From Candidatus Moraniibacteriota bacterium (GTDB lineage: Bacteria > Patescibacteriota > Minisyncoccia > Moranbacterales > GWC2-37-73), in NCBI GenBank assembly GCA_003507445.1, contig DNVR01000019.1, positions 76,395 through 140,394 on the forward strand: DNA of 64,000 nucleotides, written 5' to 3'. Below are positions 2,843-62,356 of this stretch, one piece after another. The notes beneath the pieces were generated by a model. The model was not told the origin of the DNA. It did not search any database and saw only the letters and a list, made by a program, of their open reading frames with translations. The position numbers and the translations under genes are program-made. Position 1 is the first letter of the stretch. Each line of letters begins with the position of its first letter.

Positions 2843-2962
2843 GTCATTCCTGCGGAGGCAGGAATCCAGGATCTTGCAAATCGATAGTAATAATAAAAAT
2901 AAAAGTTATTATTTTGCGAATCGTGTGCTAAATCCTGGATTCCGGACTAAATCCGGAATGAC
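2843..2962. mobile_element. GTCAT...ATGAC palindromic MITE-like element (P1 family), intergenic copy 1
   Basis: Left arm gtcattcctgcggaggcaggaatccaggat, right arm atcctggattccggactaaatccggaatgac. Each arm is itself a hairpin, with an AT-rich core between them. Near-identical arms occur at 15062-15176 and 26871-26985. Confidence 0.6.
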
Positions 2963-3529: not shown

Positions 3530-3622
3530 GGATTCATGTAGCATGTAGCATGTAACATGTAGCATGCAAAAACTGCATTGCATTTTTGTTATATGTTATA
3601 TGTTTTATGTTATATGATTTGT
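3527..3622. repeat. Composite heptamer-repeat cassette E1: (CATGTAGC)n - spacer - (TATGTTA)n, abutting the efp start
   Basis: catgtagcatgtagcatgtaacatgtagcatgc ... tttgttatatgttatatgttttatgttatatga. Near-identical to 4437-4542 and related to 57332-57406, 58868-58958 and 62256-62356. Confidence 0.7.
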
Positions 3623-3829
3623 TTATTTTACTACGAAAGGTGCTAATGCCATCACGCGAGCGCGCTTAATTGCTTGAGCAAGTGTTCGCTGATGTTTTGT
3701 GCAAATCCCGTGTCTTTTTGGTGGGTAAATTTTTCCTTGTGAGTTCATAAATCTGCGAATTAGATAAGCATCTTTGTAGTCGATCTTATCCATTTTTTCA
3801 TCGCAGAAATAACATTGTTTTCTTTCCAT
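3623..3829 (-). CDS. rpsR: 30S ribosomal protein S18
   Basis: MERKQCYFCDEKMDKIDYKDAYLIRRFMNSQGKIYPPKRHGICTKHQRTLAQAIKRARVMALAPF is a typical S18. Start taken at the internal Met, since the upstream ORF extension is low-complexity. Confidence 0.85.
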   Translation of the reverse strand: MERKQCYFCDEKMDKIDYKDAYLIRRFMNSQGKIYPPKRHGICTKHQRTLAQAIKRARVMALAPFVVK

Positions 3830-3956: not shown

Positions 3957-4451
3957 TTAAAATGGCACGTCTTCAAGTCTTACTTCGTCCTGTTCTTCAT
4001 CAAGGTTGATGGTTGGAATTTCTTCAGCCATAGGTGTTTGTTGTTGAGCGGTTGGACGAGGTGTTGCAGCTGCTGCTCCCATTGCCATTGGCGCTGGTCT
4101 TGGTCCTGATGAACCTTGTGCGCGTTGTCCCATTTGCATATTTTCAGCCACGATGTCAGTTGTTTTTCTTTCAACTCCGTCTTTGCCAGTGTAAGAACGT
4201 GTTTCTAATCTTCCCTCAAAATATACTTCTTGCCCTTTGGTTAGATATTGTCCAGCGATTTCAGCTAGACGCCCCCAAATTACAATGTTGTGAAATTCTG
4301 ATTTCTCTTGTTTTTGTCCAGCTTTGTCATTCCAAGTTCGGTTGGTAGCGATACCAACTGTGGTCACGGTTTGACCAGAAGGAGTGGTGCGCAATTCTGG
4401 GTCTCTAGTTAAGCGTCCGATGAGTTGAACTTTGTTAAGATTCATGTTCAT
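3957..4451 (-). CDS. ssb: Single-stranded DNA-binding protein
   Basis: MNMNLNKVQLIGRLTRDPELRTTPSGQTVTTVGIATNRTW...: an OB-fold SSB with a Gly/Pro/Ala-rich linker and an acidic tail ending ...EDVPF. Confidence 0.88.
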   Translation of the reverse strand: MNMNLNKVQLIGRLTRDPELRTTPSGQTVTTVGIATNRTWNDKAGQKQEKSEFHNIVIWGRLAEIAGQYLTKGQEVYFEGRLETRSYTGKDGVERKTTDIVAENMQMGQRAQGSSGPRPAPMAMGAAAATPRPTAQQQTPMAEEIPTINLDEEQDEVRLEDVPF

Positions 4452-4542
4452 GTAGCATGTAGCATGTATCATGTAGCATCAGAAGAAAAAATCTATCTTT
4501 TGCATTTTTGTTACACGTTATATGTTTTATGTTATATGATTT
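4437..4542. repeat. Composite heptamer-repeat cassette E2 (copy of E1), between rpsF and ssb
   Basis: catgtagcatgtagcatgtatcatgtagcatc ... tttgttacacgttatatgttttatgttatatga. The ssb start codon lies inside the CATG-repeat part. Confidence 0.7.
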
Positions 4543-12041: not shown

Positions 12042-14936
12042 ATGCAGGAAGACAAGATAATTATAAAGGGTGCGCGCGAGCACAATTTAAAAAATATTGA
12101 TCTGGAATTGCCTCGGAACAAGTTCATTGTTTTTACGGGTCTTTCGGGCAGTGGAAAATCAACTTTGGCATTTGATACTATTTTTGCTGAAGGGCAAAGA
12201 CGATATCTGGAAAGTTTGTCGAGTTATGCGCGTCAATTTTTGGGACAGATGGATAAGCCAGATGTTGATTATATCCAAGGTCTTTCGCCTGCAATTTCTA
12301 TTGATCAAAAATCAACCTCACACAATCCTCGTTCAACAGTGGGAACGGTAACTGAAATCAATGATTACCTGAGGCTTCTTTTTGCTAAAATTGGCGTTCC
12401 TCATTGCAGTGTTTGTGGGCGTGAAATTTCAAAACTTTCCACCGATGAAATTGTGGATAGAATTTTGGATATGGGCGGAAAAAAGAAATCACAAACAATT
12501 GAAATTTCTTCGCCAATTGTGCGCGAGCGAAAAGGCGAATATTTGGCAATGTTGGATGATATGTGGAAGCGTGGTTATTCAGAGGCGATTGTGGATGGAA
12601 AACTGGAAAGATTGGAAAATTTTAAAGATATAAAATTAGGAAGATATAACAAGCATAGTATCGATATTATTGTTGATACGGTTGTTATTAATGAAGAAAA
12701 TCTTAGTAGGATTTTTGAAGGAGTTGAAAAAGCGCTCAGGCTTTCGCACGGAATTGTAAAAGTGAAATGCGTAAAAGAGTTGAAAGTTGAAAGTAGCAAG
12801 TCGAAAGAAATTGGATGTGTTGAACAGATTTTTAATCAGAATTTGTCTTGTCCGATTCACGATATTGAATTTCCAGAAATGGAGCCGCGCCTTTTTTCTT
12901 TTAATTCTCCTTATGGTGCCTGCGAGGGTTGCGAAGGTCTGGGTATGAAAAAAGAAATTGATCCTGCGCGAGTGATGCCAGATATGAATAAAACTATTGG
13001 CGAAGGAGGGATTATGCCTTGGAGTTTTAAACCTAATAATTATCAAGGAACGGTGCTAAAAGCAGTAGCTCAATATTATAGTATTCCTGACAATAAACGC
13101 TTGCGGGATTTGCCAAAAGATAAGATTGATATTTTGATGTATGGAACTGAGGACGAAGATTTGATAAAAGTTAAATATCATTTTAAAAGTGGCAGCGGTC
13201 ATTATAATGTGCGTTGGAAAGGTGTGGTGGCGTGGCTGCAGGAAAGATATCGCACGACAACCTCAGATGCAGTGCGCACAGACATTGAAAAATATATGTC
13301 GCAAAAACCTTGTTCGACTTGCGGAGGAAGCAGATATAAAAGTGACGTGCTTCTCGTTAGTGTTGGGGGTAAAAATATTTATGAAATTTCGGCGCTTAGT
13401 ATTTGGCAGTGTATCGAATTTTTTAAAAATTTAAAATTAACTGCCCGAGAGGAATTGATTGCTGGCAGAATTTTAAAAGAAATTGTTGCGCGCTTGGTTT
13501 TTCTTAATAACGTTGGTCTGGATTATTTGACTCTTGGGCGAGCAGCGTATTCTCTTTCTGGTGGAGAATCACAGCGCATACGTTTGGCTTCTCAGATTGG
13601 TTCACAACTGGTTGGAGTTTTGTATATTTTAGATGAGCCATCTATTGGTCTTCATGCTCGCGATAATGCAAAACTCATTGAAACATTAAGGCAGTTGCAA
13701 CAAATCGGCAACACATTAATTGTGATTGAACACGATGAAGAAATGATGCGCTCTGCTGACTGGCTGGTTGATATTGGTCCGGGAGCAGGAAAGCACGGCG
13801 GCGAAATTGTGGCGCAAGGATTGCCCGAAGATGTTATTAATAATCCAAAGTCACTTACTGGAAAATACCTTCGAAATGAGCTTGAAATTGAAATTCCAAA
13901 ATTCAGAAGACAAATGAAAAGAAAGAAGAGTATCACAGTGCGAGGAGCTTCTGAGCATAATTTGAAAAATGTGACAGTGGAATTTCCACTTAAAGTTTTC
14001 ACTTGCGTGACTGGAGTTTCTGGATCTGGAAAATCAACATTGGTAGAAGAAACTTTATACAAGGCGTTGGCTAATAAATTGCATCGCGCGCTTGATGTGC
14101 CTGCAAAGCATAATGAAATTATTGGCATTGAAAATATCAACAAGGTTATTATGATTGATCAATCTCCAATTGGGAGAACGCCGCGCTCAAACCCTGCCAC
14201 TTATACTGGTCTTTTTACGCATATTCGCGAGCTGTTTGCGCAAACAAAAGACGCCAAGCTTAGGGGATATGGTCCTGGCAGATTCTCATTTAACGTGGCT
14301 GGCGGGCGCTGCGACAATTGCTCTGGCGAGGGATATCTTAAAATCGAAATGCAGTTTATGCCCGATGTGTATTTGCCGTGCGATGTTTGTAATAGTAAAA
14401 GATATAACAGTGAAACTTTGCAAGTTAAATATAAGGGTAAAAATATTTCAGAGGTGCTGGCGATGACAGTTTCTGAAGGCGTTGAATTTTTTGGCGCACT
14501 TTCAAAAATATACGAACCACTTAAAGTTTTGGAGGAAGTTGGTTTGGGGTATATTGAACTTGGTCAAAGCGCCACCACACTTTCTGGTGGAGAAGCGCAG
14601 CGTATAAAACTTGCCAGCGAACTTTCGCGTCGCGCGACTGGAAATACTTTATATATTTTGGATGAGCCAACCACAGGTCTTCATTTTGATGACATCAAAA
14701 AACTTTTAACAGTGCTCAATCGTCTTGTGGATGCGGGAAACACCGTTGTTGTTATTGAACACAATATGGACGTGATTAAAACTGCAGATTGGATCATCGA
14801 TATGGGACCGGAGGGTGGCGACGGCGGCGGAAAAGTTGTTGTCACTGGTCCACCAGAAGAAGTTATCAAATATCACAAAGAAAGTTATACCGCTAAATAT
14901 TTGCGACAAGTCCTGAAGCCGAAAAGCATACAATAA
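12042..14936 (+). CDS. uvrA: Excinuclease ABC subunit A (copy 1)
   Basis: Two ABC ATPase modules ([10 protein letters not shown] and [10 protein letters not shown]), Zn-finger Cys pairs, LSGGE signatures. 964 aa. Confidence 0.95.
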   Translation: MQEDKIIIKGAREHNLKNIDLELPRNKFIVFTGLSGSGKSTLAFDTIFAEGQRRYLESLSSYARQFLGQMDKPDVDYIQGLSPAISIDQKSTSHNPRSTVGTVTEINDYLRLLFAKIGVPHCSVCGREISKLSTDEIVDRILDMGGKKKSQTIEISSPIVRERKGEYLAMLDDMWKRGYSEAIVDGKLERLENFKDIKLGRYNKHSIDIIVDTVVINEENLSRIFEGVEKALRLSHGIVKVKCVKELKVESSKSKEIGCVEQIFNQNLSCPIHDIEFPEMEPRLFSFNSPYGACEGCEGLGMKKEIDPARVMPDMNKTIGEGGIMPWSFKPNNYQGTVLKAVAQYYSIPDNKRLRDLPKDKIDILMYGTEDEDLIKVKYHFKSGSGHYNVRWKGVVAWLQERYRTTTSDAVRTDIEKYMSQKPCSTCGGSRYKSDVLLVSVGGKNIYEISALSIWQCIEFFKNLKLTAREELIAGRILKEIVARLVFLNNVGLDYLTLGRAAYSLSGGESQRIRLASQIGSQLVGVLYILDEPSIGLHARDNAKLIETLRQLQQIGNTLIVIEHDEEMMRSADWLVDIGPGAGKHGGEIVAQGLPEDVINNPKSLTGKYLRNELEIEIPKFRRQMKRKKSITVRGASEHNLKNVTVEFPLKVFTCVTGVSGSGKSTLVEETLYKALANKLHRALDVPAKHNEIIGIENINKVIMIDQSPIGRTPRSNPATYTGLFTHIRELFAQTKDAKLRGYGPGRFSFNVAGGRCDNCSGEGYLKIEMQFMPDVYLPCDVCNSKRYNSETLQVKYKGKNISEVLAMTVSEGVEFFGALSKIYEPLKVLEEVGLGYIELGQSATTLSGGEAQRIKLASELSRRATGNTLYILDEPTTGLHFDDIKKLLTVLNRLVDAGNTVVVIEHNMDVIKTADWIIDMGPEGGDGGGKVVVTGPPEEVIKYHKESYTAKYLRQVLKPKSIQ

Positions 14937-15061
14937 CTTTCTTCCTTATCTTTCTCTCCTCAGATGAGGAGAGATGTCATGTACTCGTGACAGAGAGGTT
15001 TGAGCATTGCATGACCCACAAATCTACAAATCTGCTACGAATCTACAAATACATCAATCTT

Positions 15062-15176
15062 GTTATTCCGGGCTTGACCCGGAATCTAGGTTTAGCACAT
15101 CATGCTCTATGTTGTAGTTGATTATAATTGGCTAATTAAGTGCTAGATCCTAGATTCCCACCTACGCGGGAATGAC
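15062..15176. mobile_element. GTCAT...ATGAC palindromic MITE-like element (P1 family), intergenic copy 2
   Basis: gttattccgggcttgacccggaatctaggtttagcac ... gtgctagatcctagattcccacctacgcgggaatgac. Upstream is an (ATCTACAA)3 repeat at 15010-15050. Confidence 0.55.
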
Positions 15177-15724: not shown

Positions 15725-17212
15725 ATGAAAAAGTCAAGATTACAGCGGAAAGTAGCTGAGCTGCCTCAAAATCCGGGGGTGTATTTTTTTCGTGATCAAG
15801 AGGGTAAGATTTTATATATTGGCAAGGCGACAAACCTTCGTTCCAGAGTTCAGTCGTATTTTCGCAATGTCATCCCGAACTCGTTTCAGGATCTAGATGA
15901 GCCTAGCGAGATGCTGAAACAAGTTCAGCATGACACAAAGGGATTCTTGAGCGTTCCTGGGCGGAGTGAATGGATTGGGTTGATGGTGGCTCAAGTTGTG
16001 GATATTGATTTTGAGCAGACGGATTCAGTTTTGGAAGCGCTGATTTTGGAAAGCAATTTAATTAAAAAATATCAGCCAAAATATAATACTCTGGAGAAAG
16101 ATGATAAATCATTTTCGTATTTTGTTGTCACTAAAGAAGAATTTCCAAAAGTTTTGATTGTGAGAAAAACAGATTTAGTTTGTCATCCCGCACTTGATGC
16201 GGGTTCCAGTCACACGCACAAATCTGGCTCAGCTCTGGATTCCCGCCTACGCGGGAATGACAAGGCCTCAAAGCCTTGTAAAAAAATACAAAATACCAAA
16301 TACCAGATACCATATACCAAGACCTTCGGTCCTTATACGAGCAAGCAACAAATGCAGACCGCGCTGAAAATTATCCGTCGCATTTTCCCGTTTCATGCTG
16401 GGAAACAAAAAACTGAAAAAGGCTGTTTGGATTTTCAAATCGGTCTTTGTCCTGGGCCGTACGCTGATGCAATTTCAAAAACTGATTATAAAAAAAATAT
16501 TCGAGGGATTGAAATGATTTTGCAGGGGAAGAAAAAAAGCTTGATTTCAAAAATGGAAAAAGAAATGCAAGTTTTTTCCAAAAAAAATGAATTTGAAAAA
16601 GCGGCAGTTCTCCGAAATAAAATTTTTGCATTGCAGCACATTCGCGATGTGGCACTGATGACAAGGGAGATGGAACATGGAGCATGGAACATGGAGCATG
16701 AAATACAAGATACAAAATACCAAATACCAAATACCAGAATCGAGGCTTATGATATCTCCAACATCTCTGGACAATATGCTGTTGGTTCAATGGTGGTTTT
16801 TGAAAATGGTATGCCGAATAAATCGCAGTATCGCAAGTTTAAAATAAAAACTGTTGATGGCAGTAATGATGTGGCGATGATGAAAGAAGTTTTGTCGCGA
16901 AGATTTAATAATGATTGGTCAATGCCAGATTTGATTTTGCTGGATGGCGGACAGGGACACGTTAATATGGCAGGGGATTTGGTGCGCGAATTAGGACTAG
17001 ATTTGTTGATTGTCGGTGTGGCTAAAGGTAAGACGCGTAAAAATCTCAATTTCCAATTTCCAATTTCCAATAAAATCCCAATGTCTCAATTTCCAAAAGA
17101 AATGCAAGAGTTTTTAAATGATAAGAATCTGGTTAAATCTATTATGGATGAGGCTCACCGCTTTGCAATTGCTTATCATCGAAAATTACGCAGTAAAAAC
17201 GCCTTAAAATAA
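15725..17212 (+). CDS. uvrC: Excinuclease ABC subunit C (GIY-YIG, UVR and RNase H-like endonuclease domains, no C-terminal HhH), carrying several in-frame repeat/MITE insertions
   Basis: GVYFFRDQEGKILYIGKATNLRSRVQSYFR (GIY-YIG), EFEKAAVLRNKIFALQ (UVR), and a DISNISGQ...LLDGGQGH endonuclease core. Inserted peptides: SFQDLDEPSEMLKQVQHD, CHPALDAGSS...DSRLRGNDK, NTKYQIPYTK, MEHGAWNMEHEIQDTKYQIPNT and NFQFPISN. Confidence 0.85.
   Translation: MKKSRLQRKVAELPQNPGVYFFRDQEGKILYIGKATNLRSRVQSYFRNVIPNSFQDLDEPSEMLKQVQHDTKGFLSVPGRSEWIGLMVAQVVDIDFEQTDSVLEALILESNLIKKYQPKYNTLEKDDKSFSYFVVTKEEFPKVLIVRKTDLVCHPALDAGSSHTHKSGSALDSRLRGNDKASKPCKKIQNTKYQIPYTKTFGPYTSKQQMQTALKIIRRIFPFHAGKQKTEKGCLDFQIGLCPGPYADAISKTDYKKNIRGIEMILQGKKKSLISKMEKEMQVFSKKNEFEKAAVLRNKIFALQHIRDVALMTREMEHGAWNMEHEIQDTKYQIPNTRIEAYDISNISGQYAVGSMVVFENGMPNKSQYRKFKIKTVDGSNDVAMMKEVLSRRFNNDWSMPDLILLDGGQGHVNMAGDLVRELGLDLLIVGVAKGKTRKNLNFQFPISNKIPMSQFPKEMQEFLNDKNLVKSIMDEAHRFAIAYHRKLRSKNALK
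15869..15934. mobile_element. P2-family palindromic MITE inserted in-frame in uvrC (66 bp)
   Basis: gtcatcccgaactcgtttcaggatctag atgagc ctagcgagatgctgaaacaagttcagcatgac. The same GCTGAAAC/GTTCAGC arms occur twice in the elp3-like gene. Confidence 0.6.
16182..16262. mobile_element. P1-family palindromic MITE inserted in-frame in uvrC (~81 bp)
   Basis: gtcatcccgcacttgatgcgggttccag ... ctggattcccgcctacgcgggaatgaca. Same termini and arms as the intergenic P1 copies. Confidence 0.6.
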
Positions 17213-19564: not shown

Positions 19565-22351
19565 ATGAAAAGAATAAACCTGTCTCTTTCTGGAATGCAC
19601 TGTGCTTCCTGTGCAATGTTGATTGAAAAAGTGCTTGCAAAAACTCCTGGTGTACAAAAAGCCAGTGTGAATTTTTCTGCAGAAAAAGTTTTGATTGATT
19701 TTGATGAAAATATAACCGATCCGCAAAAACTTATTGCTGCAATAGTTAAAGGTGGATATGGTGCTGAAGAAATTGATGCTAAAGATAGTGAATTTGAAAA
19801 GAAAAAAAGGGATCATGAGATCTCAGAATATTTTTCAAAATTTATGTTTAGCGCTTTGCTTAGTGTGCCGATGTTGTATTTTATGCTTTTGGATTTTTTT
19901 AAATGGCTTCCAGGGGAAAAAACTTTTGCGCCATACATTGGTGTGTTTTCATTGCTTTTGACAATTCCTGTGCAGTTTGTGATTGGTTCAGGCTTTTACA
20001 AGGGAATGTGGTCATCGCTAAGGATGAAGACGTTTAATATGGACAGCTTGATTGCAATTGGAACTTCGACTGCTTTTTTCTTCAGTTTGTATAACTATGT
20101 GACATATGTCATTGCTAATAATTCCTTGATCGGAGTTGGTGGTATGAAAATTCCTGATCTGTATTTTGAAACAGCAGCTTATTTGATCACATTTGTGATT
20201 CTTGGAAAATGGTTGGAAATTAGAACAAAGGGAAAGACATCTGATGCGATCAAAAAATTGATGGGGCTGCAAGCGAAAACAGCCCGCGTGATTCGTGGTG
20301 GCGAGACGCTTGATATTGCAATTGATGACGTGATTCATGGTGATATCATTATTGTTCGCCCTGGAGAAAAAGTTCCTGTTGATGGAAAAATTACCAAGGG
20401 AACATCTGCCGTGGATGAATCTATGATTACAGGAGAAAGCTTGCCAGTAGAAAAAAATATCGGAAGTATGGTTGTTGGTGGAACTATTAATAAGACAGGA
20501 AGCTTTGAGTTTGAAGCTACAAAAATTGGTTCAGAAACAACATTAGCTCAAATCATTCGCTTGATTGAAGAAGCGCAAGGATCAAAAGCACCGATTCAAA
20601 ATTTTGCCGACAGTATTTCTGCTTGGTTTGTTCCAGCTGTGATTGGAGTTGCAATTTTGACTTTCATTGTCTGGTATTTTTTCTTGGGAGCAACTTTAGC
20701 TTTTGCTTTGTTGGCATTTACTTCGGTAATTGTGATTGCATGCCCATGTGCACTTGGTTTGGCAACCCCGACATCATTAATGGTTGGAACAGGTAAGGGC
20801 GCTGAATATGGCGTGCTTGTAAAAGGTGGAGAAGCGCTTGAAGCTGCAAGCAATATTTCAGCTGTAGTCTTTGACAAGACTGGAACGCTTACCAAAGGAA
20901 AGCCTGAGGTGGTAAAAATAATTTCAAATCCTGCTTTTGATTTTGATGAGGATAAGATTTTAAAAATATCATCAAGCATTGCAAAACATTCCAATCATCC
21001 CTTGTCTCAAGCTGTTGTAAGATATGGCGAAAAACAAAATATTCAACTAGCTGATTTTGGAGATTTTCAAGAAGTCCCTGGAAAAGGAATAATTGCAAAA
21101 TGCTTAACACATAATAAGGAAATAGTTTTGGGTAATATTAGAATTCTAGAGCAAGTAGGAGTCCAAACTTCTTGGGCAAAAAATCTTCTGGAAAATGAAT
21201 CTGTAAGCGCTGGGACATTACTTTTTGTGGTGCATAATGGCGATGTTGTGGGGGCAATTTCAATTGCTGATGAAGTAAAAGAAGAATCAAAAAAAGTGGT
21301 GGCAAAACTTCAAAAAATGGGTATTGAGGTTTGGATGATTACTGGAGACAATGCGCGCACAGCAAAAGCTATTGGCTTGCAGGTTGGAATCACAAATATT
21401 TTGGCAGAAGTTTTACCAGAAGATAAAGCTAACGAAGTTAAGAAACTTCAAGCTCAAAAAATAAAAAAACATTTCCATTTGTTTGGAAATTGGAAATTAG
21501 AAATTGGAAATTCCACCCGCAGGGTGGCTATGGTTGGAGATGGAATTAATGACGCTCCTGCACTAGCTCAAGCTAATGTAGGAATCGCAATGGGATCAGG
21601 AACTGATGTGGCAATGGAGGCAGGCGACATTGTTATAATGAAAAGTGATCTGAATGATGTGGTAACTTCATTTGAACTTTCAAAAGAAACGATGGGTAAA
21701 ATAAGACAAAATATGTTTTTTGCTTTATTTTACAATGTGATTGGAATTCCAATTGCTGCTCGTGTTTTCTTTGGAATCGGCTTGGTGTTAAAACCAGAAC
21801 TAGCAGGACTTGCTATGGCGATGAGTTCTATTTCAGTAGTTGGAAATTCATTGCTTCTTAAATTATTCAAGCCTGGCAAGAGAAACTATATTTCTTTGGT
21901 TGCGCCAATTATTATGATGGTAGTTTTCACGTTCGGATTTTATGAATTTGCAAAATTCAGCAGTGGAATGGAGAATACAGTTATTAATGAGGAGCAAATA
22001 AGGGTTGAATTTAATAAATTGAATTTGAATGCCCAAATAGAAATCATAAGTGAAGAGGCTGGAGTAAAGGCATTTTATTTTACTGATGAAAATAATGTTC
22101 CAAAAGAATTGCGGGAAGAAATAAACAGCAAAAGTTTCACGCCTGAAATAATCAATGGAAAAAAATATCAGAAAGTTTATATTGGTTGGGTAGAGGCGCA
22201 GATGATGATTGAAAAAGAACTTATCCAAAAATCAGGGGACAGAGCGGATGATTTTTTTGGAAACAGTGTCATCATTGAAATCTTGCCCAAAACCAAAACC
22301 ATTCTCGACAATTTCCATTTTGTCGGAGCTGATTTTCAGATCAAGAAATAG
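19565..22351 (+). CDS. copA: Copper-translocating P-type ATPase (CopA-like) with an N-terminal HMA domain, a ~170-aa C-terminal extension, and an in-frame heptamer-repeat insertion
   Basis: [11 protein letters not shown] ([12 protein letters not shown]), DKTGTLT, and [17 protein letters not shown]. The insertion [18 protein letters not shown] (21470-21514) falls just before the GDGINDAP hinge. Confidence 0.88.
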
Positions 22352-24067: not shown

Positions 24068-26860
24068 ATGGCTTCCAAAAAAGAAACTTCGAAACAAACA
24101 AATGAGATTGTAATCAAGGGTGCGCGAGTTAATAATCTCAAAAACATCGACGTTAACATCCCGAGGGATAAGTTCGTGGTGATTACGGGACTTTCTGGCT
24201 CGGGTAAATCATCGCTGGCTTTTGACACGATTTATGCCGAAGGTAATCGTCGATATATGGAAGGCCTTTCTTCGTATGCGCGAAATTTTTTGGATCCATC
24301 AGATAAGCCTGACGTGGATAAAATTGAAAATCTTTCCCCTCCAATTTCTATTGATCAAAAAAGCATTTCTCGTTCTCCGCGATCAACTGTTGGAACACTG
24401 ACTGAGGTTTATGATTATTTGCGTATTATGTATGCAAAAATCGGAGTGCTGCATTGCCCGGAGTGTGGGACATCAATGCAAAAAAGAAGCAATCAGGAAA
24501 TTTTGGATGAAATTTTAACATTTTCTCATCACACTCAGATTGCTATTTTGGCAAAGCCGAAGGATATTGCTGTTGGAAAAGAATTATTAAAACACATTGC
24601 GCAAATGGGCTATGCTCGTGTGCGTTTTAATGGAAAAATGTTTACGGTAGCGGAAGCTATGATGCTCAGCGAAAGTGAAATTGAAACTGATATTGAAATG
24701 GTTATTGATAGAATTGTGCTCGACAAGAAAAAACCTGATGTGGAAAGAATGTTAGACTCTATTGAAACAGCGATGAAAAACGGTGGCAATTCAATGAAGA
24801 TCTTGTTTGATAATGTTGAAGAACGTAATTATAACCAAGATTTCTTTTGCAGCGAATGCGGTGTGAAAATCAAAGAAGTGACGCCGCGTCATTTTTCTTT
24901 TAATAGTCCAGAGGGTGCTTGCGACCTGTGCTCCGGTTTAGGTTACACCTTAAAAGTAAATGAAGAACTTATTATTCCCAATAAAAATCTTTCTTTAATG
25001 GAAGGTGCAATTCAGCCCTGGAGCAAATCTGGTGGAAAAATAAGTGGACAGAGTGTGCAACTTTTGACGCTTAAAGATGTTGCAAAAAAATATAAGTTTT
25101 CAATGAACGTTCCGGTTAAAAAATTAACAGCTGATCAACTCAAAATTGTTTTACATGGTAATGATGGATTTGAAGGTGTAATTCCGGCATTAGAAAAAAA
25201 ATATCAAGAAACAAAATCTGATTATGTGCGCAGTGAAATTGAAAAATATATGACCGCACACACTTGTCCATCTTGCGATGGCAAGCGTCTTAAAAAAGAA
25301 TTTTTGGCGGTGGAAGTTCAAGGAAAAACAATAGATGTGATGGTCTCAATGAGTATAACTCATCTGAGAGAATTTTTTGAGAATGTTGAAAATTGGACAC
25401 AAACAACACAAGAGAAAAGCATAGGCAAACCTATTGTGCGAGAAATTTTGCAGCGTCTTAGTGCACTTGAAAACGTGGGATTGGAATATTTAAATTTGGG
25501 ACGATCAGCTCAAACAATTTCTGGTGGGGAAGCTCAACGTATCAGACTGGCTGCGCAACTCAATTCTCAATTGATGGGAATTGTATATGTTTTGGATGAA
25601 CCTTCCATCGGACTTCATTCTCGCGACACAGAAAAACTTATTAATACTATTAAAGCCTTGCAAAACGTTGGAAATTCATTGATTGTGGTTGAACACGATG
25701 AAAGCATCATTAAAGCTGCTGACTGGATTGTTGATATGGGTCCAGGGGCAGGAGAAGAAGGCGGAATCGTCGTTTTTGAAGGTGATTATAATCAACTTAT
25801 TAAATCTAAAAATCTTACTGCACAATATATATCTAAAAAGAAAAAGGTTTCAGAAAAGAAAAAAAATAGAGCTGGAAACGGTAAATTTATTGAAATTATC
25901 GGAGCTGAAGAAAATAATTTAAAAAATGTTGATATAAAAATACCATTGGAAAAATTTGTGGTTATTTGTGGAGTTTCAGGCAGTGGAAAATCAACTTTGG
26001 TAAAAAATATTTTAGCCAAAGCATTGTCGCGACATTTTTATAACACACGAGATCTTCCTGGTAAACACAAAAAAATCAAAGGATTTGAGCATATTAAAAA
26101 GGTTATTAGTATAAATCAAAATCCAATCGGACGCACTCCACGCTCAAATGCAGCAACGTATACTGGAGTGTTCTCACACATTCGCGACCTGTTTGCTGGA
26201 GTGGAGGAAGCAAAGAACAGAAATTATACTGCTAGTCGCTTTAGTTTTAATATGAAAGGTGGGCGCTGTGAAGTGTGCCAAGGGGAAGGCTCAAAGAAAA
26301 TAGAAATGCATCTGCTTCCTGATATGTATGTGAAATGCGAAGCTTGCGGAGGAACGAGGTTTAGCAAAAAAACCTTAGAGATTGAATATAAAGGCTTTAA
26401 TGTTGCACAGATTTTGGATATGGATGTGCGCTTGGCTCTGCGTTTTTTTGCAAGGCATCCGCTTATTGCTGAAAAACTTAAAACCATGGAAGATGTTGGT
26501 CTTGGATATTTGAAGCTCGGACAAAGTGCAACAAATCTTTCTGGTGGAGAAGCTCAGCGTATTAAACTTGCCACGGAGCTTGCACGAAAATCAACAGGCA
26601 GCACTTTGTATATTTTGGATGAGCCAACTGCAGGACTTCATTTTGATGATATCAGAAAATTGTTAAGCGTTCTTAATGCCTTGGTTGATAAAGGTAATAC
26701 AGTGATTGTGGTTGAACATAATCTTGATGTTGTTCGTGATGCTGATTGGGTGATTGAACTTGGACCGGATGGTGGCGACCTTGGTGGTTATCTCACTTTT
26801 GCTGGCACACCAGATCAACTTAAAAAAGACAAGAAAAGTTGGACCGCGAAATATTTGTAG
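24068..26860 (+). CDS. uvrA: Excinuclease ABC subunit A paralog (copy 2, full length)
   Basis: [34 protein letters not shown]... Has two ABC modules and Zn-finger Cys pairs. 930 aa; the domain order matches copy 1. Confidence 0.9.
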
Positions 26861-26870
26861 AGATGTCTGT

Positions 26871-26985
26871 GTCATTCCGGACTTGATCCGGAATCCAGGA
26901 TTTAACGCACTATTTTTTCTATTATAATATTCGTAATTTAATACTTGAGATATTAATCCTGGATTCCTGCCTACGCAGGAATGAC
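26871..26985. mobile_element. GTCAT...ATGAC palindromic MITE-like element (P1 family), intergenic copy 3
   Basis: gtcattccggacttgatccggaatccaggatttaacgcac ... atcctggattcctgcctacgcaggaatgac. Confidence 0.6.
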
Positions 26986-28429: not shown

Positions 28430-30154
28430 ATGAAAAATGAAATTCAAAAATTAATAGAAAGTGCCTTAAATGAGGCAAAAAGGGCTAATGATTGGGTTGA
28501 TTTTGAGATGCCTGAAATTCTCGTTGAATATCCAAAAAGTGAACAATTTGGGGATTATACAACAAATGTTGCTATGATTTTAGCAAAAAAAGTTGGGAAA
28601 AATCCGATGGAAATAGCTGAGATTATTAACTTACAACTTACAACTTACAACTTACAACAATTTGAAAAAATAGAGGTGGCTCAGCCGGGATATATTAACT
28701 TTTATCTTTCCAAAAAGTATTTGCAAGAAATCGTTGAAAAAATAAATACTGAAAAAGAAAAATTTGGAAATTCTGATAAAAAAAATGAGAAAGTATTGGT
28801 AGAATTTTCACAACCAAATACTCATAAAGAATTTCATATCGGCCATTTAAGGAATGTGTTTATTGGAGATGCGCTTGTTAAAACGATAAAGAAATCCGGC
28901 AGCGAGGTAGTTGCTGCAAATTATATCGGGGACACCGGGACACATATTGCAAAGTGTTTATGGGGAATTGTTAAATTTCATAATGGGGAAGATTTGGATA
29001 AGATATCAAACAAGGCTGAATTTCTAGGAAAGGTTTACAGTGAAGCTGCACAGGCTATTGAGAATAATCCTGAATTCGAAGAAGAATTTAAAAATGTCCA
29101 AAAAGAATTTGAAAATGGTGATCAGGAATTGGTTCAATTGTGGAGCAAGACAAAAAAATGGTCGTTGGATGAATTTCAAAAGATTTATGAAAAACTCGGA
29201 GTATCTTTTGACGTTTACTTTTGGGAAAGCGAGGAAGAACTGAAAGGCAAGGAAATGCTAAAAGAATTGATGGGGGTATCCTGTATTAAGGAAAGTCAGG
29301 GAGCTATCGTGGCAGATCTTGAAAAATATGACTTAGGAGTTCTAGTGCTGGTCAGAAAGGACGGTAGCGCCTTGTATGGATTGAAAGATATACCTCTGGC
29401 TGTGAAAAAATTCAAAGAATTTTCCATAGATCGTAGCATAGTGGTTGTTGATTTGCGTCAGAGTCTATATTTCAAACAGATATTCAAAATTCTTGAATGC
29501 ATGGGATTTCACAAAGATATGAAACACGTGGGCTACGAGTTTGTATCCCTGAAGGGAAGTGAGACGATGTCGTCCAGGAAAGGAAACATCATACCAGCAA
29601 CATATTTGATTGATGAAACCGTAAAGCGTGTAAAGGAAAAATTTCCCAATACCGATGTTGCTGAAGAAATTGGCATAGGTGCGTTGAAATTTTATATGCT
29701 GAAATATTCCTCACAGTCAAAAATAGAATACGATATTGAAGAGTCTGTAAGATTAGATGGCGCAACCGGACCGTATGTACAATATGCGCATGCGCGTATT
29801 TGCAATATCTTGGAAAAGGCAAAGGGAATAAAAGGATTAATGGGAGAAAAGGGAAAAATGGGCAATGTGGATTTGCAATTATTAATCCATGAGAAGGAAG
29901 TAAGTTTGATAAAAGAGCTTAATAAATTTCCGGAATTGGTTGCTGTGGTTGCTGAGGATTATGAAGTTCACAAGTTTGCCCATTATGCCATCAAATTGGC
30001 TGACAAATTTCACAGTTTTTATGATGCTTGTAAGGTGATTGATGAGGGCAATGAAGAACTGACAATCGCTAGACTTTCTCTGATAAATGCTGTTAGAATA
30101 GTATTAGCAGAAACCCTGGATTTGATAGGGGTGGATGCACCTGAAAAAATGTAG
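28430..30154 (+). CDS. argS: Arginine--tRNA ligase with an in-frame (ACAACTT)n insertion
   Basis: HIGH-like region (FSQPNTHKEFHIGHLRNVFIGD), with KMSSRKG in the KMSKS position. The insertion NLQLTTYNLQQ is encoded by aacttacaacttacaacttacaacttacaa at 28626-28660. Start uncertain (28394 or 28430). Confidence 0.88.
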   Translation: MKNEIQKLIESALNEAKRANDWVDFEMPEILVEYPKSEQFGDYTTNVAMILAKKVGKNPMEIAEIINLQLTTYNLQQFEKIEVAQPGYINFYLSKKYLQEIVEKINTEKEKFGNSDKKNEKVLVEFSQPNTHKEFHIGHLRNVFIGDALVKTIKKSGSEVVAANYIGDTGTHIAKCLWGIVKFHNGEDLDKISNKAEFLGKVYSEAAQAIENNPEFEEEFKNVQKEFENGDQELVQLWSKTKKWSLDEFQKIYEKLGVSFDVYFWESEEELKGKEMLKELMGVSCIKESQGAIVADLEKYDLGVLVLVRKDGSALYGLKDIPLAVKKFKEFSIDRSIVVVDLRQSLYFKQIFKILECMGFHKDMKHVGYEFVSLKGSETMSSRKGNIIPATYLIDETVKRVKEKFPNTDVAEEIGIGALKFYMLKYSSQSKIEYDIEESVRLDGATGPYVQYAHARICNILEKAKGIKGLMGEKGKMGNVDLQLLIHEKEVSLIKELNKFPELVAVVAEDYEVHKFAHYAIKLADKFHSFYDACKVIDEGNEELTIARLSLINAVRIVLAETLDLIGVDAPEKM

Positions 30155-30156
30155 AA

Positions 30157-30245
30157 ATAACTAATAACAAACAACTAACTACTAACAACAAGGGCTTAAC
30201 AAAGCATTTCTGTTATAAGTTGTAAGTAGTAAGTTGTCAGTTAAT
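30157..30245. repeat. Long imperfect hairpin built from ACAACTA / TAGTTGT repeat units (argS-glycosyltransferase spacer)
   Basis: caactaactactaacaac at 30167-30184 is inverted as gttgtaagtagtaagttg at 30225-30242. Confidence 0.55.
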
Positions 30246-35874: not shown

Positions 35875-36000
35875 TCAAATTTCCAATTTCAAATTTCCAA
35901 TTTCCAATAAAATCATAATGACTAAATTTTAAATGACCAAACTTGAGTTCATAATTGAAAATTTAATGAGAATTGAGAACTGAAAATTGAAAATTATGGA
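35875..36000. repeat. Hairpin-forming (AATTTCC)n / (GAAAATT)n repeat module
   Basis: aaatttccaatttcaaatttccaatttccaat ... ttgaaaatttaatgagaattgagaactgaaaattgaaaatt. Confidence 0.55.
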
Positions 36001-38064: not shown

Positions 38065-39261
38065 GTGATGTTTGAATTATTATCACAAAAAAATAATAGA
38101 CGTATTGGAAAACTGCACACTAAAAGCGGAGTTATTGAAACACCGTTTTTTATGCCGATTGCAACCAAAGGTGCAGTAAAAAATGTTTCGCCCGAGGATT
38201 TGATTGCTATTGGGGCGCAGATTGTGCTTGGAAACACTTATCATCTTTGGCTTAGGCCGGGAGATGAGCTTATTGCTAAGGCTGGTGGACTTCATAGATT
38301 TATGAATTGGGATGGCCCTATTTTGACAGACTCGGGAGGATATCAAGTTTTTTCTTTGGGTGCGCGCGCCAAGGAAAAATATGGATCAAGTGGAGTTTCA
38401 CTTGATGAAAAAGGCGTTAGTTTTGTTGATCCAACCAATGGTAGTAAACACTTTATGTCGCCAGAAAAATCCATTGATATTCAACTTAATCTTGGTAGTG
38501 ATATTGTTATGGTGCTGGATGAATGCCCACCCTTTCCTTGTTCTCACGAGGATGCAAAAAAATCTTTGGAGCTTACAACAAGGTGGGCAGCTCGTTGTTT
38601 CAAGCATTTTCATAAAAAGGTCGCTGAAAATTCGGAAAAATATGCAAAGGGCAGACCGCTTTTGTTCTGTATAGTGCAGGGAAGTATATATGAAGACTTG
38701 AGGAAAGAGAGCGTGCATCAATTGATGAATATTGAATTTTCCGCTTTGGGCGGACCAGTCTCAGGTTGGGATGGATATGCCATCGGGGGTGTGGCAGTAG
38801 GAGAGCCTAGAAAACATCTTTATGATATTTTGCAGTGGGTGGTTCCATTTTTGCCAACTGACAAACCTCGCTATTTGATGGGCCTGGGTAAACCAGAAGA
38901 ATTGGTGGCTGCAGTAGAAGCGGGAATGGATATGTTTGATTGCGTTATTCCTACACGCGAAGGAAGACATGGGCGCCTCTTCCAGTGGAAGAGAATTTCC
39001 AATTTCCAATTTCCAATTTCCAATGACAAGGAATGCGTTGATTTGCAAGGTGATTTTTATGAAACTATAAACATCAATAATGAACAATTCAAGGAAGATT
39101 TTACCCCTATAGATTCGCAGTGTGATTGTTATGCTTGTAAAAACTTCACTAAGGCTTATCTTAATCACTTGCTTAGGACTGATGAGCCATTCTTTTTGAA
39201 ACTTGCTTCGGTGCATAACCTGAGATTTTATCATAGACTAATGGAACTTCTTCGTAAATAA
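38065..39261 (+). CDS. tgt: Queuine tRNA-ribosyltransferase with an in-frame (AATTTCC)4 insertion
   Basis: TPFFMPIATKGAV, LGNTYHLWLRPG, DSGGYQVFSLG, and a C-terminal Zn site (CDCYACKNF). The inserted peptide NFQFPISN is encoded at 38994-39023. Confidence 0.9.
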   Translation: MMFELLSQKNNRRIGKLHTKSGVIETPFFMPIATKGAVKNVSPEDLIAIGAQIVLGNTYHLWLRPGDELIAKAGGLHRFMNWDGPILTDSGGYQVFSLGARAKEKYGSSGVSLDEKGVSFVDPTNGSKHFMSPEKSIDIQLNLGSDIVMVLDECPPFPCSHEDAKKSLELTTRWAARCFKHFHKKVAENSEKYAKGRPLLFCIVQGSIYEDLRKESVHQLMNIEFSALGGPVSGWDGYAIGGVAVGEPRKHLYDILQWVVPFLPTDKPRYLMGLGKPEELVAAVEAGMDMFDCVIPTREGRHGRLFQWKRISNFQFPISNDKECVDLQGDFYETININNEQFKEDFTPIDSQCDCYACKNFTKAYLNHLLRTDEPFFLKLASVHNLRFYHRLMELLRK

Positions 39262-54035: not shown

Positions 54036-55094
54036 ATGGATATTAAGAAACTGCAGCAATTTTTGCAAGAAAATAATTTGCCTAAGTTTCGTTTGGGGCA
54101 AATTCAAAAAGCCATCTTTACTGATGGCGTTTCTTCGTTTGGGGAAATAACAACACTTTCCAAGGATTTGCGAGAAAAAATGGAAAAGGAAATGCGGTTG
54201 CTTTCTTTTGATGTTGAAAAAGTTTTAGTGGCTAAGGATGGACAATCAATAAAAGCTTTGTTAAAACTTTCTGATGGAGAGTTGATTGAAACTGTTTTGA
54301 TTTCGCCTAAGCCAGAAATTTGGTCAGCTTGCATTTCTTGCCAAGTCGGCTGTGCGATGGGTTGCAGGTTTTGCGCGACTGGCAAGATGGGGTTCAAGCG
54401 TGACCTTACCGCTGAAGAAATTACTGATCAAATTTTATTTTGGAAACAATATCTTAAAAAAAATTCTTCTGCTTTGTTTGGAAATTGGAAATTGGAAATT
54501 GGAAATTGCGATGTTGATAACATCGTCTATATGGGTATGGGAGAGCCATTTAATAATTGGAAAAATGTTGCTGAGAGTATAAAAGTTTTGACTGATGAAA
54601 AGTTATTTGGATTTGGCTCACGTTCTTTGTCTGTTTCCACTTCGGGCATCGCCGACGGCATTGAAAGAATGGCTAATGAATTTCCGCAAGTTAATTTGGC
54701 AATTTCCCTTCATTTTGCGAGCGACGAAAAACGCGACCGATTTATGCCAGTCAATAAAAAAGATAATCTGGAAAATTTGCGACAAGCGCTGAAAAAATAT
54801 TTTCAAATTACAACGCGTAAAGTTTTTTTGGAGTATATTATGTTGGATGGAATAAACGACACTGCCCTTGATGCAAAGTTGCTGGCTGATTTTATATATT
54901 CAATTGGTAACACCCATCTTCTTCATATGAATCTCATTCGATACAATATGACAAGCGAGGACCTAAAGCCATCTTCAAAAACTCGCACGCAACTTTTCAA
55001 ACAAGAACTTGAAAAACACAACATTAACGCTACCATAAGAAAAAGTCTCGGCGAAGAAATCGAAGCCGCCTGCGGACAACTTGCTGGTAAGTAG
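54036..55094 (+). CDS. rlmN: 23S rRNA (adenine2503-C2)-methyltransferase RlmN (radical SAM) with an in-frame (GGAAATT)3 insertion
   Basis: CISCQVGCAMGCRFCATG (CxxxCxxC), MGMGEP, and a conserved C-terminal Cys. The inserted peptide GNWKLEIGN is encoded at 54477-54502. Confidence 0.9.
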   Translation: MDIKKLQQFLQENNLPKFRLGQIQKAIFTDGVSSFGEITTLSKDLREKMEKEMRLLSFDVEKVLVAKDGQSIKALLKLSDGELIETVLISPKPEIWSACISCQVGCAMGCRFCATGKMGFKRDLTAEEITDQILFWKQYLKKNSSALFGNWKLEIGNCDVDNIVYMGMGEPFNNWKNVAESIKVLTDEKLFGFGSRSLSVSTSGIADGIERMANEFPQVNLAISLHFASDEKRDRFMPVNKKDNLENLRQALKKYFQITTRKVFLEYIMLDGINDTALDAKLLADFIYSIGNTHLLHMNLIRYNMTSEDLKPSSKTRTQLFKQELEKHNINATIRKSLGEEIEAACGQLAGK

Positions 55095-57331: not shown

Positions 57332-57406
57332 GAAACATGAAACATGTAGCATGTAACAAAAAAGCTTTTTAATTCAGATTTGTTATATGTTGTATGTTAT
57401 ATGATA
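57332..57406. repeat. Composite heptamer-repeat cassette E3 in the divergent elp3/methyltransferase promoter region
   Basis: catgaaacatgaaacatgtagcatgtaac ... tttgttatatgttgtatgttatatgatatatg. Confidence 0.65.
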
Positions 57407-57407
57407 T

Positions 57408-58106
57408 ATGAAAATTGAAACTGCTAATAAAATTTTACAGGAGACTGAGCTGGGTTACGATCTGATTTCTAAGAAATTTTCCGAGACCCGGAAGCATTTT
57501 TGGCGTGGGCTGGAGTTCATAAAGGATTATACGCACAGCGGCGATAATGTTTTGGATTATGGCTGTGGCAATGGCCGCCTTTTGGAATTGTTGGCTGATA
57601 AAAATATAAATTATCAGGGAGTTGATGTTTCCCAGAAGCTCGTTGACCTTGCCAAAAGCAAATATACTGGAGAAAATATTGAGTTTTCCAAAATAAGCTC
57701 CAGTCAAATTAGCTTAGCATTTGAGACGGGATTTTTCAATACCGTTTATAGCATTGCGGTTTTTCATCATTTTCCTTCAAAAAAATATCGCGAGGATGTG
57801 GCAAGAGAACTTTATGAAAAAACAAAAGACGGTGGGTATATTGTGGTAACGGTTTGGTTTCTTTGGCAAAAAAAATATTTGAAAAATATTTTACAAAATT
57901 GGATTAATAAAATAAAAGGGAATAGCGCATTGGATTGGAATGATTGTTCAATTTCTTTTACGGATAACTCTGGAGCGCGGGTTGAAAGATTTCACCATGC
58001 CTTCACAAAGAGAGAACTGAAAAAACTTTTTGAACTAGTGGGGTTTAAAACAGAAAAATGTGAAGTTGTTGATGGAAGAAATATTTTGTACATAGGAAAA
58101 AAATAG
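57408..58106 (+). CDS. Class I SAM-dependent methyltransferase
   Basis: VLDYGCGNGRL is methyltransferase motif I. Confidence 0.75.
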   Translation: MKIETANKILQETELGYDLISKKFSETRKHFWRGLEFIKDYTHSGDNVLDYGCGNGRLLELLADKNINYQGVDVSQKLVDLAKSKYTGENIEFSKISSSQISLAFETGFFNTVYSIAVFHHFPSKKYREDVARELYEKTKDGGYIVVTVWFLWQKKYLKNILQNWINKIKGNSALDWNDCSISFTDNSGARVERFHHAFTKRELKKLFELVGFKTEKCEVVDGRNILYIGKK

Positions 58107-61143: not shown

Positions 61144-61357
61144 TCTTTGTTGTTTCAATGTATTTTGACCCGTCGATGGTGGCGGGTCTTTAATTTGACA
61201 AAAAACCGCAGATAATGTACACTTTAAATAAAGAAAGCCCCAGGGGCTTTTTAAAAAACCTTAAAATCATATAGCATATAGCATATAGCATATAGCAAAA
61301 ATACCAATAAAGTTGCTGTTTGCCTAAAATTGTTACATGTTACATGTTACATGTTAA

Positions 61358-61543
61358 ATGAATAGTATTATACAGTTTTTCCTTGAAGCTAAGGCAGAAA
61401 TGCTGAAAGTGAATTGGCCAACAAAGAAGCAAACAGTGAATTATACATTGCTTGTGGTCGCAGTTAGTTTGGTTGTTGCAGGATTTCTTGGAGGATTGGA
61501 CTGGATTTTTAGTTACATCTTGAAGACATTTATCATAAAGTAA
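61358..61543 (+). CDS. secE: Preprotein translocase subunit SecE
   Basis: 61 aa. KVNWPTKKQTVNYTLLVVAVSLVVAGFLGGLDWIF. Located upstream of nusG. Confidence 0.8.
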   Translation: MNSIIQFFLEAKAEMLKVNWPTKKQTVNYTLLVVAVSLVVAGFLGGLDWIFSYILKTFIIK

Positions 61544-62255: not shown

Positions 62256-62356
62256 TCATATAACATACAACATAGAACATAGAACAAGGGAATTCAGTAC
62301 TGCACGCTTCTGGCATATCTGCTCCATGTTCCATGCTCCATGTTCCATGAAGCATT
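62256..62356. repeat. Composite heptamer-repeat cassette E5 upstream of rplK
   Basis: catataacatacaacatagaacatagaaca ... ctccatgttccatgctccatgttccatgaagcatt, directly before the rplK ATG. Confidence 0.65.

Follow-up and report, generated by a model that had tools for sequence, protein, structure and literature searches.

Doublets of a dRS3/NTS-type hairpin repeat in a Moranbacteria-like genome, with a small GIY-YIG nuclease as their most likely partner

Introduction

What are the short hairpin-bearing repeats that lie both between and within the genes of a Moranbacteria-like genome, and by what are they spread? The question is raised by a 64,000-nt stretch of Candidatus Moraniibacteriota bacterium (GenBank assembly GCA_003507445.1, contig DNVR01000019.1, positions 76,395 to 140,394 of the forward strand), referred to below as the window, with positions counted from its first letter. 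A first-pass annotation, made from the letters alone, described three intergenic copies and some shorter in-gene relatives as a family resembling MITEs (inverted-repeat transposable elements in miniature), located downstream of DNA-repair genes and without a transposase in the window. Judged from their sequence, the elements can be securely assigned as doublets of the dRS3/NTS/SRM hairpin family, of which they are divergent members. Their most likely partner, as suggested by the gene that such repeats flank in other genomes, is an Ssn-type single-strand nuclease acting in trans. They represent no new kind of element, the repeat family being known already; what is new is the host lineage, a Moranbacteria-like member of the candidate phyla radiation (CPR). 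Two further findings add modestly to this: a second type of arm, of which an Ssn-flanked version also exists, and in-frame insertions in UvrC and Elp3 that repeatedly use the same sites.

Seven doublets in the window

The window contains seven doublets, i.e. 14 arms, and no others, as found with our own hairpin finder and two nhmmer profiles. These tools were used since the published pattern of the 'Ssn-related motif' (SRM) found one arm only. Three doublets are intergenic and four lie in frame within genes (ORF, open reading frame):

E1, 2843-2962, strand not assigned: doublet of 120 nt, intergenic, located between the efp stop and, on the recA side, a small ORF and its terminator; A-type arm 2843-2872, AT-rich core 2873-2931, B-type arm 2932-2962
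E2, 15062-15176, strand not assigned: doublet of 115 nt, between the stop of uvrA copy 1 (14936) and the 3' end of a minus-strand 109-aa ORF; B-type arm 15062-15092, beginning with GTTAT, and A-type arm 15147-15176, with one G-T pair in its stem
E3, 15869-15934, + strand: doublet of 66 nt, in frame in uvrC, within the GIY-YIG domain; encodes VIPNSFQDLDEPSEMLKQVQHD; both arms of the second type
E4, 16182-16261, + strand: doublet of 80 nt, in frame in uvrC; encodes CHPALDAGSSHTHKSGSALDSRLRGND; right arm 16235-16262 is near-canonical NTS/dRS3, ATTCCCGCGTAGGCGGGAAT
E5, 26871-26985, strand not assigned: doublet of 115 nt, between the stop of uvrA copy 2 (26860) and the stop of a minus-strand 152-aa ORF (27002); B-type arm 26871-26901, A-type arm 26956-26985
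E6, 55892-55965, - strand: doublet of 74 nt, in frame at site B of the Elp3-like gene; encodes CHAELVSGSSKVNMPNEMLKQVQHD; second-type arms
E7, 56723-56796, - strand: doublet of 74 nt, in frame at site A of the Elp3-like gene; encodes CHPEFISGSRSAKQLGEMLKQVQHD; second-type arms

The doublets are laid out as YGTCAT-hairpin-ATCCAG...CTGGAT-hairpin-ATGACR, with an 8-bp hairpin in all 14 arms. The intergenic copies start with GTCAT (GTTAT at 15062) and end with ATGAC, with a T preceding and an A following. Each of their arms consists of GTCATTCC, 3 bp, a loop of 4-5 nt, the 3 complementary bp and GGAATCCAGGAT, often with YTAGCAC next, and the pattern GTCATTCC-N5-20-GGAAT has six matches in the window versus none in 100 shuffles. 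One type A arm (inner stem TGC or CGC, loop GKAG) is paired with one type B arm (inner stem GGA or GGG, loop YTTRA) in every intergenic copy, E1 being inverted relative to E2 and E5. The second arm type, GTCATGCTGAACTTGTTTCAGCATC (GCTGAAC type), is used by three of the four in-gene doublets.

When whole elements are folded as single-stranded DNA (ssDNA), z-scores range from -3.8 to -8.6, and from -3.8 to -7.5 for the intergenic copies (E1 -27.2 kcal/mol, z -7.5; E2 z -3.8; E5 z -6.1; E6 z -8.6). The predicted fold is a three-way structure: both arms form hairpins, CCAGGAT pairs with ATCCTGG, and a TGTCA/TGACA stem closes the element. The intergenic cores (54-59 nt) have a GC content of 0.19-0.33, versus 0.48-0.57 for the arms, and their alignment reveals no similarity among the three above that of shuffled sequence. 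Descent of the three intergenic elements from a single master copy was rejected on this basis, since homology is confined to the arms. At the gathering threshold, Rfam identifies only two tRNAs in the window.

The three intergenic copies and their conserved inverted termini were thus correctly located by the first-pass annotation. Its description of shared arms with internal stem-loops also stands for all three, with the correction that the arms are of two different types and enclose unrelated cores. The relatives in uvrC and the Elp3-like gene are indeed in frame, and they are four full doublets, three of them with the second arm type.

Relation to the dRS3/NTS/SRM family

In Neisseria, the repeat dRS3 (ATTCCC-N8-GGGAAT) flanks 'RS' spacers of 50-150 bp with a lower G+C content, giving NIME units (PMC1797815). 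It has been extended to an oriented 28-nt NTS with the consensus CGTCATTCCCGCGMAVGCGGGAATCYRG, and the degenerate SRM was defined and detected in many bacteria, Rickettsia being listed among the SRM-rich genomes (Nat Commun 2025, PMC11893778). According to that study, SsnA is a small single-domain GIY-YIG protein which binds and cuts the motif solely as ssDNA, on one strand, a few nucleotides 5' of the hairpin. The main determinant of cutting is the three bases that precede the palindrome, and that of binding is the C that follows it (PMC11893778). Inverted copies of the motif typically bracket the ssn gene, 'like an IS' (insertion sequence), with no transposition demonstrated there, and SsnA reduces transformation by NTS-bearing DNA about five-fold (PMC11893778).

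As for the window, GTC precedes the palindrome in 13 of the 14 arms and C follows it in all 14, most arms then continuing with CAG, TAG or TCG. The positions that are kept, GTC and C, are those reported as critical for SsnA cutting and binding. An exact dRS3 is present only at 16239-16258, and 15154-15173 is one base off; the other arms read ATTCC-N10/11-GGAAT. The SRM pattern HGTCWYN(0-2)YYVSBRHN(0-5)WNVSBRGN(0-2)RNCYNB is found in one arm of 14 (16235-16262), versus 0.035 per shuffle. No window arm matches the NTS consensus with at most one mismatch, the best being 16235-16262 (TGTCATTCCCGCGTAGGCGGGAATCCAG) with two.

Distribution of the arms

Three pattern scans were performed, on genomes (one per species), viral contigs and metagenomes, each listing at least 120 matches; 360 loci were analysed in all. 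The pattern GTCATTCC-N10/11-GGAATCCAGGAT occurs in at least 120 genome stretches, versus about 2 expected by chance. The possibility that the copies are unique to the window, named by the first-pass annotation as what would speak against a family, can therefore be set aside: this is a genuine dispersed family. Among the matches listed, the hosts include Neisseria gonorrhoeae, Burkholderiales, Nitrospirota, Pirellulales, Dehalococcoidia, Desulfobacterota, Saccharibacteria, Paceibacterota, Moranbacteria, Gracilibacteria and others. Viral contigs gave at least 120 matches to a slightly shorter pattern ending in GGAATCCAG, and the second arm type is present in at least 120 metagenome contigs.

Convergent doublets, 54-190 nt overall, are the usual form, with 57 in the genome loci (most of them 60-150 nt) and 93 in the metagenome loci (54-175 nt). 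The inner three stem positions, which are left free by the pattern, are complementary in 118 of 129 matches and comprise 17 different triplets. This test avoids circularity and shows that the hairpin itself is under selection.

A small GIY-YIG gene between the arms

At 15 of the 360 loci, a single-domain GIY-YIG gene (75-121 aa, PF01541) adjoins the arms, mostly between two convergent ones. Based on tblastn, and among the matches listed, these are divided over 7 of 120 genome, 4 of 120 metagenome and 4 of 120 viral loci:

Genome loci with an arm-adjacent GIY-YIG gene: L104 (two copies), L069, L087 (decayed), L105, L100, L080
Metagenome loci with an arm-adjacent GIY-YIG gene: L155, L214, L254, L237
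Viral loci with an arm-adjacent GIY-YIG gene: L255, L299, L343, L359

Inverted arms, of both types, flank the gene at L104 (twice), L069, L087, L105, L100, L080, L155, L214 and L254. L104 carries two 384-nt units consisting of TGTCAT-hairpin-ATCCAGGAT, a 99-aa gene and ATCCTGGAT-hairpin-ATGACA. The left arm of L155 is identical (25/25) to three in-gene arms of the window, and the B-type arm at L087 (Yonathbacteria) shares its GGGCTTGACCC hairpin with E2's left arm. The catalytic spacing of the encoded proteins (Y10/Y21/E68) is the same as that of the residues mutated in SsnA (Y6/Y17/E64). Size, Pfam GIY-YIG match and catalytic spacing together support the assignment of these small genes as putative Ssn-type (cd10448) members. 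NCBIfam and the PDB contain no named family or structure for the small protein.

No other gene shows a comparable association. Where nearest arms are 250-3000 nt apart, the units of 384-402 nt hold only the GIY-YIG gene and larger ones hold ordinary genes. All-against-all clustering of the ORFs near arms gave one specific small family, GIY-YIG proteins of 75-113 aa, the other clusters being generic (ABC transporter, response regulator, acyl-CoA dehydrogenase, FtsX). No family occurs more than three times among the 148 nearest ORFs of at least 100 aa, and no transposase is among the recurring families. Instead of the transposase partner suggested by the first-pass annotation, the arm-flanked gene found elsewhere thus encodes an Ssn-type GIY-YIG nuclease of about 95 aa.

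Some of these genes have particular features. The gene at L087:806-1105 contains three in-frame stops and looks decayed, with its arms intact, and the one at L105:5186-5470 (Gracilibacteria) has TGA at conserved glycine positions, which fits the alternative genetic code of that group. The Ssn-like protein family (proteins P0121-P0240; loci L104, L069, L155, L214, L254, L255 and L299) has at least 8000 matches. Its members are 70-80% identical even where the phyla are very distant (Gracilibacteria, Nitrospirae, Betaproteobacteria, Phycisphaerae, Latescibacterota), and many of them are located on very short contigs. Such high identity between phyla and such short contigs are as expected from repeated or horizontally moving DNA.

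Gain, loss and flanks

Comparison with relatives indicates that individual copies come and go. E1 is not present in strain L003, which is 96% identical in this region and has a short octamer array, (TAATTTCC)n at L003:11420-11462, in its place. The closest Elp3 relatives (P0242-P0244, 88-90% aligned identity) are without the E6 insert at site B, and at site A an unrelated short linker replaces E7. In the syntenic sister species GCA_003507495.1, a methyltransferase gene contains an in-frame doublet of 80 nt, of which the window ortholog is free. A metagenome scan for the E5 site without the element gave no matches.

A solo canonical arm (TGTCATTCCCGCGTAGGCGGGAATCCAGG) was also observed in strain L003, at L003:4927-4960 downstream of rpoC. 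At the corresponding spot (L001:4316-4660), the window strain has a different sequence followed by an extra gene with an ORF6N domain.

The flanks were compared for 64 doublets. At -1 there is a T or C in 62 of them, at +1 an A or G in all 64, and these flanking Y and R bases lengthen the inverted repeat. The target preference amounts to a Y at -1 and G-poor flanks, and nothing more. Target-site duplications, for which the first-pass annotation had proposed a search, are essentially absent (0-1 of the 64 doublets), with a direct-repeat flank of any kind in two. Because of the missing target-site duplications, the non-alignable cores and the gain and loss between relatives, the elements are closer to REPINs (inverted pairs of repetitive extragenic palindromic, REP, sequences), NIME units and Rickettsia palindromic elements (RPE) than to MITEs. 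The comparison with RPE and REP families proposed in the first-pass annotation was therefore the right lead.

In-frame copies in UvrC and Elp3

The in-frame inserts add 22-27 residues to UvrC and to the Elp3-like radical-SAM protein; the closest relatives of both proteins are named Candidatus Moranbacteria. E3 splits the GIY-YIG domain of UvrC, query residues 52-86 corresponding to residues 50-56 of structure 1yd6. It is not present in 10 of 11 aligned UvrC homologues, the eleventh (P0001) being the same gene at 100% identity. Both Elp3 doublets encode CH..SGS...MLKQVQHD, and neither the E6 nor the E7 insert occurs in solved Elp3 structures. An AlphaFold model of UvrC (12 sequences, mean pLDDT, i.e. 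predicted local distance difference test score, of 49.9) renders the inserts as low-confidence coil. E3 is positioned between the first helix of the GIY-YIG domain and the next conserved block, with the reading frame and the flanking motifs intact. That a repeat with a GIY-YIG partner lies within the GIY-YIG domain of UvrC is probably a coincidence.

The same sites are used in related lineages. Peptides derived from the element are present in 17 of 120 Elp3 relatives, always at site A or B and with both arm types, and in about 10 of 120 UvrC relatives, at two sites. Doublets inside ORFs are scarce elsewhere (5/63 and 1/75, versus 4/7 in the window), and the in-frame share in the window is unusual and recalls RPE. 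In the CPR host, the doublets act like RPE, at sites repeatedly used in related lineages. With respect to annotation, the elements explain the peptides VIPxxAGIQ, LDSRLRGND and MLKQVQHD in predicted proteins, and these presumably recur in the annotations of other genomes.

Other inserts were observed as well. The Elp3 homologue P0245 has further in-frame inserts, PPASLREALRAG and PPRVDERTSPRVEAG (alignment columns 445-500), seemingly from another G+C-rich repeat family. Homologue lengths range from 416 to 688 aa for UvrC and from 505 to 621 aa for Elp3; given this wide variation, in-frame repeat insertion seems common in this lineage.

Gene neighbours

E1, E2 and E5 are all located between convergent gene ends, and five of the seven copies lie within or beside recA, uvrA or uvrC. 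The position downstream of DNA-repair genes reported in the first-pass annotation is literally true. As an association it is weak, since our reading of the ORF list gives about six convergent gaps in the window, three of which adjoin repair genes, and repair genes are abundant there (recA, uvrB, two uvrA, uvrC, recO). On the recA side, moreover, E1 does not follow recA directly: a small ORF, complete with a promoter of its own and a bidirectional terminator, lies between the two.

The predicted product of this 46-codon ORF (about 2647-2787) is a small membrane peptide. Its TTGACA-17-TATAAT promoter at 2530-2558 is perfect, and the ORF is followed by a 14-bp bidirectional terminator at 2806-2837, which abuts E1. 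Compared with strain L003 there are few differences and the frame stays open. The two full-length uvrA paralogues (12042-14936 and 24068-26860) are 12 kb apart with a doublet after each, and share only 66-75% identity in the ATPase motifs.

No transposase or recombinase domain was detected by Pfam among the window ORFs scanned, in line with the first-pass annotation, whose conclusion of non-autonomy is also upheld: the elements have no coding capacity of their own and no mobilising gene is nearby. For SSB, S6 and the M23 peptidase, precomputed Pfam matches were used. A sequence identical to the window is also present in GCA_003510165.1 (DOKX01000004.1, 155949-219948, reverse strand), and the window sequence recurs in several groundwater assemblies.

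Proposed mechanism and alternatives

The doublets can be described as two oriented modules of about 30 nt (Y-GTC, an 8-bp stem beginning with AT, a loop of 4-5 nt, C-YAG) that face each other across a variable core, as a consequence of which each strand has one 'forward' motif near its 5' end. We lean towards the explanation, with some reserve, that the doublets are gene-less derivatives of an arm-ssn-arm unit on which an Ssn-type nuclease acts in trans. They would be non-autonomous relative to this unit, as a REPIN is to its RAYT, the transposase associated with REP sequences. The substrate of the nuclease might be ssDNA at replication forks or incoming DNA, and host repair would then copy, homogenise or delete the unit. 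The nuclease would in this way spread, homogenise and occasionally remove doublets. Copying or removal by host repair would account for the absence of target duplications, and an Ssn-type nuclease in trans for the conserved arms around free cores and for the presence of both arm types at one protein site. Surviving copies would be those at harmless spots, such as convergent gene ends and permissive surface linkers read in frame.

Several points weigh against this explanation. A tblastn search of the window gave no Ssn-like gene, nor do some 18 kb of its flanks contain one. The SRM pattern misses 13 of the 14 arms, although those arms do align with Ssn-flanking arms elsewhere. The unrelated intergenic cores are contrary to a simple copy-out of one master. 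Furthermore, Ssn-driven transposition has never been demonstrated, the sole tested role being the restriction of NTS-bearing transforming DNA in Neisseria, and the position at which SsnA is reported to cut is a few nucleotides upstream of the motif and not at T|GTCAT (PMC11893778). Another group credits mobilisation of the Neisseria repeat to a Group 2 RAYT (Bertels and Rainey preprint).

Another possibility might be that the doublets are sites that serve the host, either for Ssn control of incoming ssDNA or as hairpins at the 3' ends of transcripts. This overlaps with an Ssn-type nuclease acting in trans, and we regard it as unlikely. The five-fold effect of SsnA on transformation would fit it, as would arms that are conserved around freely varying cores and the location of most copies in or beside recA, uvrA and uvrC. 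The intergenic copies are also all between convergent genes, and no terminator-like hairpins other than the doublets are present after uvrA copies 1 and 2. However, E2 and E5 have no T-tracts at their arms and E1 lies just past a complete bidirectional terminator. Four copies are inside coding sequence, where a terminator would do harm. Gain and loss, together with both arm types at one Elp3 site, suggest mobility rather than a fixed function, and the link with repair genes is based on very few sites.

Improbable in our view is that the doublets are REPINs in the strict sense, i.e. inverted REP pairs copied by a genome-encoded RAYT (a domesticated IS200-like Y1 HUH transposase). The architecture does match, with two inverted hairpins, a short spacer and no target duplication, but the conserved 5' bases are GTCAT, whereas GTAG is typical of REPs. 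The only gene found bracketed by the arms in the fetched loci is GIY-YIG, no Y1 family recurs among the 148 nearest ORFs, no such domain occurs in the window, and no RAYT flanked by the repeat was found in the 360 loci. In favour of REPINs, Bertels and Rainey (preprint) regard the Neisseria repeat ATTCCCGCGCAGGCGGGAATC as the master sequence of REPINs belonging to a Group 2 RAYT.

Classical MITEs, i.e. deletion derivatives of an insertion sequence moved by a DDE transposase with the parent elsewhere in the genome, would share the terminal inverted repeats, small size, AT-rich cores and presence/absence variation, but are very improbable given 64 doublets without target-site duplication, non-homologous cores and no transposase with these ends in 360 loci, so that the MITE label of the first-pass annotation does not hold in the strict sense. 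Equally hard to credit are targets of an IS110/IS1111-type (Piv-like) recombinase, or attachment-site relics: a phage-encoded recombinase of Neisseria filamentous prophages is documented to use dRS3 for integration (PMC1797815, PMC11893778) and IS110 elements are reported often to pick REP-like palindromes, but no IS110-type gene lies beside the arms in the fetched loci or in the window, and the doublet form and the spread of the repeat would be left unexplained.

Taking the Ssn-type nuclease in trans one step further, we tentatively raise the possibility that arm-ssn-arm units and gene-less doublets form a distinct class of mobile element. Such a class would be built on a GIY-YIG ssDNA endonuclease of about 95 aa, spread between phyla (including CPR bacteria and (pro)viruses), move by nuclease-triggered copying or gene conversion and reseed the same Elp3 and UvrC sites. 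If true, this would explain the uniform arms, the absence of target duplications and the repeated seeding of permissive sites in essential proteins. In any case, the recently described NTS/SRM-Ssn system of repeat and nuclease is extended here into CPR bacteria with very small genomes. With small genomes, clear gain and loss, two Ssn-flanked arm types and no target duplications, this material could help to decide whether Ssn or RAYT spreads dRS3-type repeats.

Heptamer arrays

Besides the doublets, about 45 tandem arrays of 7-nt units were observed in the window, nearly all with 4.3-4.4 copies (about 31 nt). Many units are used, such as CATGTAG, TGTTATA, AATTTCC, AACTTAC, AAATACC and others. 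Examples are:

3535-3566 with 3587-3616, heptamer arrays
4449-4479 with 4509-4538, heptamer arrays
16666-16736, heptamer array
17047-17071, heptamer array
21483-21512, heptamer array
28628-28658, heptamer array
30159-30242, heptamer array
35878-35908, heptamer array
38994-39024, heptamer array
54478-54508, heptamer array
57329-57410, heptamer array
61268-61360, heptamer array
62257-62349, heptamer array

The arrays mostly face each other and pair into hairpins of about 30 bp, some of them only on the + strand via G-U pairs (3530-3625, -39.3 kcal/mol with z -5.9 on +, versus z -0.8 on -). They are located upstream of gene starts and in frame in uvrC, TGT and an RlmN-like gene, and they may be more unusual than the doublets themselves. 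At Elp3 site A, relatives have in-frame heptamer arrays (L376:10480-10640, L375:1610-1780) where the window has the doublet at 56723-56796, and two window doublets directly adjoin arrays (15014-15051, 16284-16320). Such co-occurrence might reflect either a shared use of permissive sites or the targeting of one repeat by the other.

Comparison with known systems

Among known systems, the NTS/SRM repeats resemble the window elements in having C/T-GTCAT, a palindrome beginning with ATTCC(C) and C-YRG, the right arm of E4 being the nearest case. They are also alike in that matching arm types flank a GIY-YIG gene of about 95 aa as inverted repeats, and in their spread across phyla. The window elements differ in their TGC and GGA inner stems and in the whole GCTGAAC arm type, which fall outside the published pattern. 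A further difference is the Moranbacteria-like CPR host, a group unnamed in the main text of PMC11893778, with four of seven copies in frame.

NIME units are comparable in that inverted dRS3 hairpins of about 20 bp surround unrelated low-G+C spacers, which the window cores fit in size and G+C content. The window units are isolated and do not form arrays, and their stems are mostly ATTCC-N10/11-GGAAT rather than ATTCCC-N8-GGGAAT. NIMEs are described as specific to Neisseria (PMC1797815). MITEs such as Correia elements are likewise small, non-coding and dispersed, with terminal inverted repeats, but the window elements are without target-site duplication or conserved cores, and neither the window nor the 360 loci yielded a transposase-bearing insertion sequence with these ends that could be the parent.

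REPINs are many-copy pairs of inverted hairpin repeats (within about 130 bp) that can form a larger hairpin and leave no target duplication, and in the REPIN/RAYT system, too, a single trans-acting gene is flanked by matching repeats. The 5' bases differ, and so does the associated gene, which is a GIY-YIG nuclease here and an HUH/Y1 transposase in the case of RAYT. Finally, RPE are small palindromic elements found in frame in unrelated housekeeping genes, adding a peptide at tolerated positions and not present in orthologues (PMC10969869). In this respect they are like the in-gene copies described here, which at 66-80 nt are shorter than the approximately 150 bp of RPE.

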